Source: a virus (taxonomy: Duplodnaviria; Heunggongvirae; Uroviricota; Caudoviricetes). Taken from it: DNA of 10,106 nt. Every line of letters starts with the position of its first letter. Position 1 is the first letter of the stretch. Positions 3,544 to 5,568 of this stretch are shown piece after piece. The position numbers were made by a program, and so were the translations under genes. The notes beneath the pieces were generated by a model. It searched no databases and was not told the origin of the DNA. It was given only the letters and a program-made list of their open reading frames with translations. The stretch lies in IMG/VR virus record IMGVR_UViG_2737471839_000009; one strand, given 5' to 3'.

Positions 3544-5568
3544 TCAGGCCACCGACGAACGCACCAGCCCGCGCCAGTCAAGTGGTGCCACTCCGGCATC
3601 AATACGGATTTTTGTGGCAATGCCGTCAGTGGTGAAACCTTCCTGCTGATCAATGTATGGCGTGTCCACACCATCGAGCCAGGCCACTTCAATGGTGTCG
3701 GTGCCCTGTGCCGCCGCCAGATACCAGGTTTTCGGATCTGCCGCATCAAGACGCGCTTCCGCAATTACTTCGGCAAAGTTCTGGATGGGGTTAATGACAC
3801 CGGCGTTTGCATCCGCCCCTTTCACACTGGCCGATTTGATGGTCTGGTTCGCCACCGTCTCCAGTGCCACCGGTACCAGCATAAAGGCCGGACGGATATT
3901 CAGGGCGCGATCGCCTTCTTTCTGCAGGCGCATCATCTGACGGGCCGCATCCAGTCCGGAAACGGAGATCCCGCCGGTGGCAATATTTTTGTGATCGGCA
4001 TGGAACAGCGCCTTACCGTCTGACAGTTTCGGGTTATCCGTCAGCACCTTGTAGACCAGGTCACCAATCGTTGCCTTCGCCGCACGCCCCATCTTCATCG
4101 GCACGTCAACCAGCATATTCAGGTCATCATTGATAATGGCCTGGCGGGTGATGGAGAAAATCTCCCCGTAAGTGGCCAGAGCAATGGTCTCCTTGCGATC
4201 TGAGGTGGTGATGTATTTATACTCCGCCCCTTCACGAACCTGACGCAGAGAACCAAAACCGCCCATCCCCACGCGATACGCTGTTTTGAAGTCTGACAGG
4301 CGTCCCTTACGGGTCCACTTCTGGAAGGTTTCTTCTGATTCCTCCCAGCCCTGGATCAGCCCCTTGTTCGACACATCCAGCAGAATATTGCCAAAATCAG
4401 AGGTGCTGTGCGTCAGCGCCAGCCCGACCATCTGCATGGGGTTATAACTGGCCACCCCAATACCACGCTCGGTCAGTGACATGCGAGCCCATTCACGCAG
4501 GGTCATCCCGTTATAGACATTATCCTTCTCGACATTTTCAAATCCGGCACGGGCCAGCATCGCCTGGCGGATCCCGTCTCCCACAAAATTGCCGTTTCCG
4601 GCATAAATATAGGCCGGTGTGTTTTTGTTGGTCGGCGAGGACTCCTTGCCCATTTCATTCAGAAGGCGCTCGCGGGCCATTTCCAGCGAACAGTCAGGAT
4701 CGGCCACACACTGCGCCTGAAGCGCCTGATAGCGCCCGCCAAACATGGCAAACAGATCGTTAATGCCTGACATGCGGGCTTTCTGCTCAGCCATAACGCG
4801 GGCGCGAATGGTCGCCTCATCAGACACTGCCGGTACCGGTGATGGTTCTGTTACCGCCGGTGCAGGGATTGTCACTGTGGTATCACGCGGGGCACTGTTG
4901 TGTGGCTGCGTGATCATATTTCGGATGGATTCCGGCATCTTTTTAAATTCCTCTGTACGTTTTGACTGAATACATGCCATTGCTTTAACGGCTGGCGTCA
5001 CCTGGTCAGCAAATCCGTGTGCCAGACACTCGGCACCGGACATCCAGGTCTCATCCGCCAGCATGGCGGCAATTTCATCGGTGGTTTTTCCGGTTTTCTG
5101 CGCATATACCGGCACCATAACCGACTCAAGTTTGTCCAGACGTTCGGCATAAGCGCGCATTTTCTCCGCATCACCACCGCTGATCCCCCAGGGTTTATGG
5201 ATCATCATGAAGGCATTTTCCGGCATAATGACCGTGTCACCGGCCATCGCAATCAGGGATGCCATCGAGGCAGCAACGCCATCCACATACACGGTAATGG
5301 CCGCACCGTGATTTTTCAGGGCATTAAAAATGGCGATGCCTTCAAAGACATCGCCACCCGGTGAGTTGATGTGGAGATTAATGTGGGTGATATCACCCAG
5401 GGCATTCATATCTCTGACAAACTGCTTCGCGGTGACGCCCCAGAAACCAATCTCATCATAAATATAAATATCCGCCTCACCCTGACCACCCGCCTGCATC
5501 CTGAACCAGGATTTATTCTTCATGCTGGCTGTCGGTGGCCTGCTGACGCTGTTGTTCAGTTCCGGCAC
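3544..5568 (-). CDS. Tripartite capsid gene: ClpP-like prohead protease, scaffold-like linker and HK97-fold major capsid protein fused in one ORF (Gifsy-2 type)
   Basis: Long ORF with an N-terminal ClpP-like region (…ADIYIYDEIGFWGV…HINSPGGDVFEGIAIFNALKNH…VDGVAASMASLIAMAGDTVIMPENAFMMIHKPWG…), a Pro/Ala/Glu-rich linker, and a C-terminal ~330 aa typical of HK97-family capsid proteins. Start is uncertain: I prefer GTG at 5568..5566 (GGAGG 5 nt upstream at 5574..5578) over ATG at 5523..5521 (MKNKSWF…, poor Shine-Dalgarno) or ATG at 5499. The ORF-track start at 5760 lies deep inside the portal gene and is unlikely. Confidence 0.85.
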   Translation of the reverse strand: MPELNNSVSRPPTASMKNKSWFRMQAGGQGEADIYIYDEIGFWGVTAKQFVRDMNALGDITHINLHINSPGGDVFEGIAIFNALKNHGAAITVYVDGVAASMASLIAMAGDTVIMPENAFMMIHKPWGISGGDAEKMRAYAERLDKLESVMVPVYAQKTGKTTDEIAAMLADETWMSGAECLAHGFADQVTPAVKAMACIQSKRTEEFKKMPESIRNMITQPHNSAPRDTTVTIPAPAVTEPSPVPAVSDEATIRARVMAEQKARMSGINDLFAMFGGRYQALQAQCVADPDCSLEMARERLLNEMGKESSPTNKNTPAYIYAGNGNFVGDGIRQAMLARAGFENVEKDNVYNGMTLREWARMSLTERGIGVASYNPMQMVGLALTHSTSDFGNILLDVSNKGLIQGWEESEETFQKWTRKGRLSDFKTAYRVGMGGFGSLRQVREGAEYKYITTSDRKETIALATYGEIFSITRQAIINDDLNMLVDVPMKMGRAAKATIGDLVYKVLTDNPKLSDGKALFHADHKNIATGGISVSGLDAARQMMRLQKEGDRALNIRPAFMLVPVALETVANQTIKSASVKGADANAGVINPIQNFAEVIAEARLDAADPKTWYLAAAQGTDTIEVAWLDGVDTPYIDQQEGFTTDGIATKIRIDAGVAPLDWRGLVRSSVA

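Follow-up and report, generated by a model that had tools for sequence, protein, structure and literature searches.

A Gifsy-2-type gene joining protease, scaffold-like and major capsid parts in a lambdoid prophage of Escherichia coli

Results

We analysed a stretch of DNA of 10,106 nucleotides, IMG/VR virus record IMGVR_UViG_2737471839_000009 (the whole of which is called the window here), whose minus strand carries at positions 3544..5568 a single gene with protease and capsid parts. In our reading, to which we assign a probability of about 0.9, this gene serves a Gifsy-2-type lambdoid prophage of Escherichia coli as its head gene, encoding a protease, a proline-rich linker, scaffold-like helices and an HK97-fold capsid protein as one polypeptide of ~74 kDa. 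The fusion architecture is already known and is regularly recognised by annotation pipelines, being represented by a curated family with a structurally studied prototype, from which the gene does not depart. What is added here is a comparative argument on the start codon and on the domain boundaries.

A single uninterrupted reading frame of a known family

The open reading frame spans 3544..5760 on the minus strand (738 codons when counted from a mechanical TTG) and contains no internal stop codon or frameshift. It closes with TGA at 3546-3544, with TAA next in frame, and in-frame starts at GTG 5568, ATG 5523 and ATG 5499 give proteins of 674, 659 and 651 residues, respectively. Residue numbers are counted from GTG 5568, the favoured start, from which the complete fusion gene runs to the TGA. 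The identity of the gene is supported by two family models and by alignment with Gifsy-2. The NCBIfam model NF045540 (scaf_prot_MCP1, 'ClpP-like prohead protease/major capsid protein fusion protein') gives 993.2 bits against a curated cutoff of 475, with residues 32-672 matching positions 2-651 of the 652 in the model, a full-length match, and PHROG 133 also matches essentially over its full length (1141 bits, residues 14-673). A further NCBIfam model, NF045542 ("head maturation protease, ClpP-related"), matches residues 32-190. As the start of NF045540 corresponds to residue ~31 here, the model is silent on the N-terminal extension discussed below.

The tripartite gene of the Salmonella phage Gifsy-2 (NC_010393 22471-24561, STM1034.3n) encodes 696 residues as against 674 here, and the two proteins are 60% identical and colinear from residue 1 to residue 673 of the 674 in the window protein. 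The order of the three parts (ClpP-like protease, middle region, capsid protein) is the same, the fusion gene overlaps an upstream lambda-family portal gene in both phages, and the terminase, portal, head and lambda-like tail genes (Z, U, V, G, T) stand in the same order. Downstream, Gifsy-2 encodes a 107-residue decoration protein that is 53% identical to the cement protein of the window. The difference in length comes from short indels in the N-terminal extension and in both linkers, the proline-rich one and the one that precedes the capsid domain, and the portal gene is overlapped by 86 nt in Gifsy-2 but by 56 nt here. The hosts also differ, the window belonging to E. coli and sharing ~93% identity over 9.8 kb with long-tailed Stx2a-converting phages. 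In 2010, Effantin and colleagues reportedly purified Gifsy-2 virions, described the fused protease-scaffold-capsid arrangement and modelled the T=7 capsid with HK97 gp5 and lambda gpD.

The gene is widespread. The closest copy, in E. coli 06-00048, is 99.3% identical; similar DNA is contained in 2061 of 5426 complete E. coli genomes, and 82 records of a phage collection span at least 80% of the fusion protein. When one genome per species was scanned, 80 loci of 42-76% identity came up from Enterobacterales, Pasteurellaceae, Pseudomonas, Psychromonas, Shewanella and others, nearly all matching over the full length and thus keeping all parts in one uninterrupted frame, as does Gifsy-2. Among the database homologues listed, the capsid Pfam family was found in all 240, and the Clp family in all except one partial entry. 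A literature search for further characterised fusions of the Gifsy-2 type, or for capsids of this type with sequenced N-termini, brought up nothing of use.

Domain organisation of the fusion protein

The ClpP-fold serine protease domain (residues 20-196, 4981..5511, minus strand) starts with a conserved SW(F/Y) motif and contains a match to Pfam CLP_protease at residues 46-191 (E = 2e-36). Ser101 (5266-5268, within GVAASMA) and His124 (5197-5199, within MMIHKP) fall on the catalytic serine and histidine of ClpP crystal structures, and both residues are invariant among 132 aligned homologues, most of which are only 40-50% identical to the window protein. Other protease families did not fit the fusion protein: two SppA (S49) models scored 28 and 18 bits, far below their cutoffs of 155 and 311, and no match to Pfam Peptidase_S78 was found.

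The C-terminal half is an HK97-type major capsid protein domain (residues 328-674, 3547..4587, minus strand), which is the most conserved part of the fusion protein. Pfam assigns residues 384-671 to Phage_capsid_4 (E = 7e-56), with a weaker match to Mu-like_gpT (E = 7e-10). Because ClpP and crotonase folds filled both lists of PDB matches, the capsid domain was tested by other routes. A profile of 35 sequences of the C-terminal domain, compared with the PDB, found the cryo-EM capsid proteins of Pseudomonas phage JBD30 (8RKC/8RKX, E = 1e-10) and of phage Mu (9JOD, E = 9e-9), and the JBD30 protein has been described with the extended loop, the peripheral and axial domains and the N-arm of the HK97 fold. 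The predicted structure is likewise matched by major capsid proteins in BFVD (E = 3e-15, TM 0.72), and its long hairpin (420-454), 28-residue helix (484-511) and C-terminal strands come in the order expected for the HK97 fold.

This structure was predicted with AlphaFold. An alignment of the 21 close homologues alone gave a predicted local distance difference test score (pLDDT) of 36, and the addition of 116 distant full-length homologues, obtained by a second search seeded with a 42%-identical relative, gave a mean pLDDT of 80.3. Confidence is low at residues 1-18, 221-248, 311-326 and 428-444, and the first three of these segments are also the least conserved and most indel-rich stretches in the alignment of 132 homologues. 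The N-terminal extension (residues 1-19, 5512..5568, minus strand) overlaps the end of the portal gene and holds the alternative start ATG 5523 as Met16; it is gapped in ~60-67% of the homologues and predicted to be disordered, with pLDDT below 50.

Between the protease domain and the capsid domain lie two variable, flexible linkers and a helical segment. Linker 1 (residues 197-249, 4822..4980, minus strand) begins with a semi-conserved stretch, AMACIQSKRxEEFxKMPxSIRNMIT, and continues as a hypervariable proline-rich segment; it has the lowest conservation of the alignment and its largest insertions (after positions 220 and 247), and pLDDT is below 50 at residues 221-248. Linker 2 (residues 309-327, 4588..4644, minus strand) is variable too, with indels, among them an 8-residue insertion in Gifsy-2, and with pLDDT below 50 for residues 311-326. 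Residues 250-308 (4645..4821, minus strand), enclosed by the linkers, are moderately conserved and nearly gap-free, with predicted helices at 251-274, 281-289 and 295-308 and block means of pLDDT of ~81-93. No Pfam family matched this segment. It resembles a delta domain, and we presume that it acts as an internal scaffold.

A previous interpretation of the window, made from its letters alone (the sequence-only reading), had proposed a single reading frame of the Gifsy-2 organisation, with a ClpP-like protease in the N-terminal third and an HK97-fold capsid protein in the C-terminal half, distinct from the separate C, Nu3, D and E genes of lambda. The analysis described above bears out this proposal. 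Its description of the middle as an acidic and proline-rich linker was right in one half only: the variable part (residues 223-249) is 22% proline and only 7% aspartate plus glutamate, hence proline-rich and not acidic, and the middle of the protein holds the helical segment in addition.

The start codon

Directly upstream lies the lambda-family portal gene (5513..7015, minus strand; Pfam Phage_portal_2, E = 1e-80), which the fusion gene overlaps by 56 nt if counted from GTG 5568 and by 11 nt if counted from ATG 5523. Comparison of related loci suggests that translation probably starts at GTG 5568. A Shine-Dalgarno sequence, AAGGAGG (5574..5580, minus strand), precedes this codon with a 5-nt spacer and lies inside the portal codons for Lys-Gly-Gly. 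About 45 Enterobacterales loci have GTG or ATG at the equivalent of 5568, preceded by AAGGAG(G) at 5-9 nt or, in more diverged loci, by a weaker AAGG at 8 nt. In 24 non-redundant loci the portal-frame codons that make up the Shine-Dalgarno sequence are AAA in 24/24 and GGA in 24/24. Outside this site, GGA accounts for 14% of the glycine codons of these portal genes, and the adjoining aspartate codon varies between GAC and GAT; the pattern therefore points to selection on the Shine-Dalgarno sequence at the nucleotide level and not just on the portal protein. The curated start of the Gifsy-2 gene also aligns with GTG 5568.

The sequence-only reading had named all three starts as plausible, had noted the strong Shine-Dalgarno sequence and the overlap with the portal gene, and had dismissed the longest frame. 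The ambiguity it described is real, as public entries fall into three length classes (671-674, 656-659 and 648 residues), and the three codons are all present; GTG 5568 is now the best supported of them, ATG 5523 is less probable and ATG 5499 drops out. The TTG at 5760 is excluded, since its position is well inside the portal gene, no Shine-Dalgarno sequence precedes it and, in several relatives, in-frame stops just 13-16 codons upstream of the conserved start cut it off from that start.

Weighing of alternative readings

Several points weigh against the interpretation given here, or against parts of it. The third, acidic catalytic residue of the protease is not invariant, Asp172/Glu173 being fixed just among close relatives, and for this phage the processing, the cleavage sites and the scaffold role rest on analogy. 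The Shine-Dalgarno sequence lies within a conserved portal motif, Asp-Lys-Gly, and part of its conservation is thus at the protein level, so that it is only the synonymous-site pattern that carries the argument for a ribosome-binding site. In addition, the majority of the distant homologues are annotated to begin about 5-6 residues before the conserved tryptophan (MxxxxxWY), as a protein started at ATG 5523 would. It is conceivable, but rather improbable, that the same fusion is translated from this ATG as 659 residues, alone or in addition to GTG 5568; initiation might then be translationally coupled to the end of the portal gene, with its TAA 5 nt downstream, and the 15 upstream codons would be portal coding sequence only. 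The overlap ATGAAGAATAA of ATG 5523 with the portal stop fits such coupling, PGAP picks this start in the 99.3%-identical copy, entries of 656-659 residues exist, several loci begin MKSWF or MKKKNSWY, and the disordered residues 1-18 are absent from most homologues. However, no Shine-Dalgarno sequence precedes ATG 5523, and Met16 occurs only in the closest relatives, being replaced by Ala, Leu, Val or Pro in relatives that are 74-93% identical. In these relatives only the upstream GTG or ATG with its Shine-Dalgarno sequence can start a protein ahead of SW(F/Y), and both the nucleotide-level selection before 5568 and the curated Gifsy-2 start argue for the longer form. A start at ATG 5499, giving 651 residues clear of the portal gene, is highly improbable. 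Met24 is invariant among the 21 closest homologues and some 648-residue entries use the equivalent codon, but it too is without a Shine-Dalgarno sequence and is replaced by Ile in Pasteurellaceae, Psychromonas, Sodalis and some Pseudomonas homologues (SWFSIKA, SWYSIKA, SWFRIQA). This start is excluded because the conserved SW(F/Y) motif, between the portal stop and 5499, must be translated: Ser20-Trp21-Phe22-Arg23 (the SW(F/Y)R motif) is invariant in close relatives, and SW(F/Y) is recognisable in all distant ones.

The ratio of products has to be counted against our interpretation as well, since one protease per capsid subunit is unusual and no second product that would relax the 1:1 ratio was found. 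Lambda makes nested C and Nu3 products from an internal start, and by that analogy a shorter scaffold-capsid product without the protease could also be made here from an internal in-frame start such as Met211, which lies in a KMP triplet invariant among close homologues. We consider this unlikely: a scan of the frame found no internal ATG, GTG or TTG with a convincing Shine-Dalgarno sequence, the GAGG ahead of Met211 sits 11 nt away and is accounted for by Glu-Glu codons, and residues 201-220 are poorly conserved in the wider family. Slightly less doubtful, taken together, are the ideas that the extension of ~19 residues is a functional addition specific to Enterobacterales (for example a tail contacting the portal or DNA), or that two isoforms from GTG 5568 and ATG 5523, or an internal product lacking the protease, tune the protease-to-capsid ratio; no description of any of these was found in the literature for Gifsy-2-type head genes. 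Finally, the long frame might be an artefact or a decayed prophage gene in which a lost stop or a frameshift has joined protease and capsid genes that are separate in lambda or HK97. Prophages often decay, the terminase gene next to the closest E. coli copy is a pseudogene, and indel-made portal-protease-capsid 'fusions' of 1159 residues are present in databases. The chance of this is nevertheless next to nil and the conservation data rule it out, for the architecture is uninterrupted in the 80 species-level loci, the 82 phage records, ~2000 E. coli genomes and Gifsy-2, with strong conservation of the catalytic residues and the capsid domain.

Comparison with HK97, lambda, JBD30 and Mu

As in HK97, the capsid domain has the HK97 fold and a scaffold-like segment is fused to its N-terminus, presumably to be removed by the phage protease in the procapsid. 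The protease of HK97, in contrast, is the product of a separate gene of another family (Peptidase_S78), whereas here it is ClpP-like and fused, and no separate protease frame exists between the portal gene and the capsid domain. HK97 moreover has covalent chainmail and no decoration protein, unlike the phage described here, which encodes a cement protein.

The resemblance to lambda lies in the portal, in the gpA-type terminase, in the lambda-like tail genes, in the encoding of protease and scaffold together and in the use of a decoration protein. The differences concern the head proteins themselves. Lambda gpC is a protease of the S49/SppA type, for which the models remain far below their cutoffs here, and gpE is encoded by a separate gene of another family, whereas the capsid domain of the window is fused and has no match to Phage_cap_E. 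The decoration protein here belongs to Phage_cement_2 and matches no other Pfam family.

By profile search, no solved structures come closer to the capsid domain than the capsid proteins of JBD30 (PDB 8RKC) and Mu (PDB 9JOD). JBD30 also bears trimeric minor capsid proteins, but its scaffold (gp33), protease (gp37) and capsid protein (gp38) are encoded by separate genes.

Neighbouring genes and sequence elements

The next gene downstream encodes a head decoration (cement) protein (3130..3456, minus strand; Pfam Phage_cement_2, E = 9e-20). Gifsy-2 has been listed as one of the phages whose threefold axes carry a trimeric decoration protein (PMC8538268). Two hairpins lie in the 87-nt gap that separates the fusion gene from the cement gene (3457-3543, minus strand): one is small, GCCC-GAAA-GGGC, with seven T after it, and the other, CAGCCCC/GGGGCTG with 7 bp, immediately precedes the GGAG ribosome-binding site of the cement gene. 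These hairpins could be a weak attenuator or an element of mRNA stability; the fold of the gap was not better than that of shuffled sequence (z -1.8).

A 93-residue frame follows (2856-3137, minus strand), which Pfam PF13856 names 'Gifsy-2 / ATP-binding sugar transporter from pro-phage' and whose homologue PGAP names 'DNA breaking-rejoining protein'. Both names look like legacy misnomers, because the position between the decoration gene and gpZ suits a head-tail joining protein. In the tail region, the lambda G/GT -1 slippery heptamer GGGAAAG is found at 633-639 (minus strand), 15 nt before the stop of gpG (615-1046, minus strand), with a gpT-like frame at 184-588 (minus strand). The frameshift of the tail assembly chaperone thus appears, from these signals, to be conserved in the window.

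Upstream of the portal gene, a small frame at 7015-7251 (minus strand; 78 residues from its mechanical start) occupies the position of lambda gpW between terminase and portal. It had no Pfam match, and its homologues are annotated with 70 residues in E. coli and 68 in Gifsy-2. The terminase of the window (7224-9347, minus strand) is intact, with 707 residues, and of the gpA type; in the prophage of E. coli 06-00048 the large terminase (locus L001, 1414-3537) carries an internal stop and is annotated as a pseudogene. GC content is 0.45 at 9501-10000 and 0.53-0.58 elsewhere, and this low-GC stretch, upstream of a DUF1441 small-terminase-like gene (9344-9820), may be a cos or late-operon boundary region.

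About ten database proteins of 1158-1159 residues join portal, Clp protease and capsid domains (our entries P0080-P0083, P0085, P0087, P0088, P0090, P0095 and P0097). In the two inspected, P0085 and P0080, a 1-nt frameshift near the end of the portal gene switches the reading from the portal frame into that of the fusion. The positions differ and the switches therefore look like independent 1-nt indels, arising from sequencing error or prophage decay; there was no sign of programmed read-through in these two.

Discussion

By analogy with Gifsy-2, HK97 and lambda, a course of assembly can be proposed for the fusion protein. Translation most likely begins at GTG 5568, and the ribosome-binding site for it would lie within the final portal codons. 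The capsid domains would then build a procapsid shell on the portal with the protease and scaffold parts facing inwards, and crowding within the shell may activate the protease, which after assembly would remove the scaffold part and itself by cleavage. The capsid protein would probably be released by a cut within linker 2 (residues ~309-327), the likeliest region for it. The fragments would exit, the shell would expand as DNA is packaged, and the cement protein encoded downstream would, as trimers, stabilise the expanded shell.

An arrangement of this kind supplies protease, scaffold and shell protein in a strict 1:1:1 ratio from one gene, and it is common in E. coli prophages, including the long-tailed Stx-converting phages. 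Its significance here is mainly one of correct annotation. Public records disagree on the start (674, 659 or 651 residues), and labels such as 'Clp protease' or 'protease/scaffold' are common, so that the major capsid protein is hidden by them. Of these starts, the comparative evidence favours the GTG that lies inside the portal gene.

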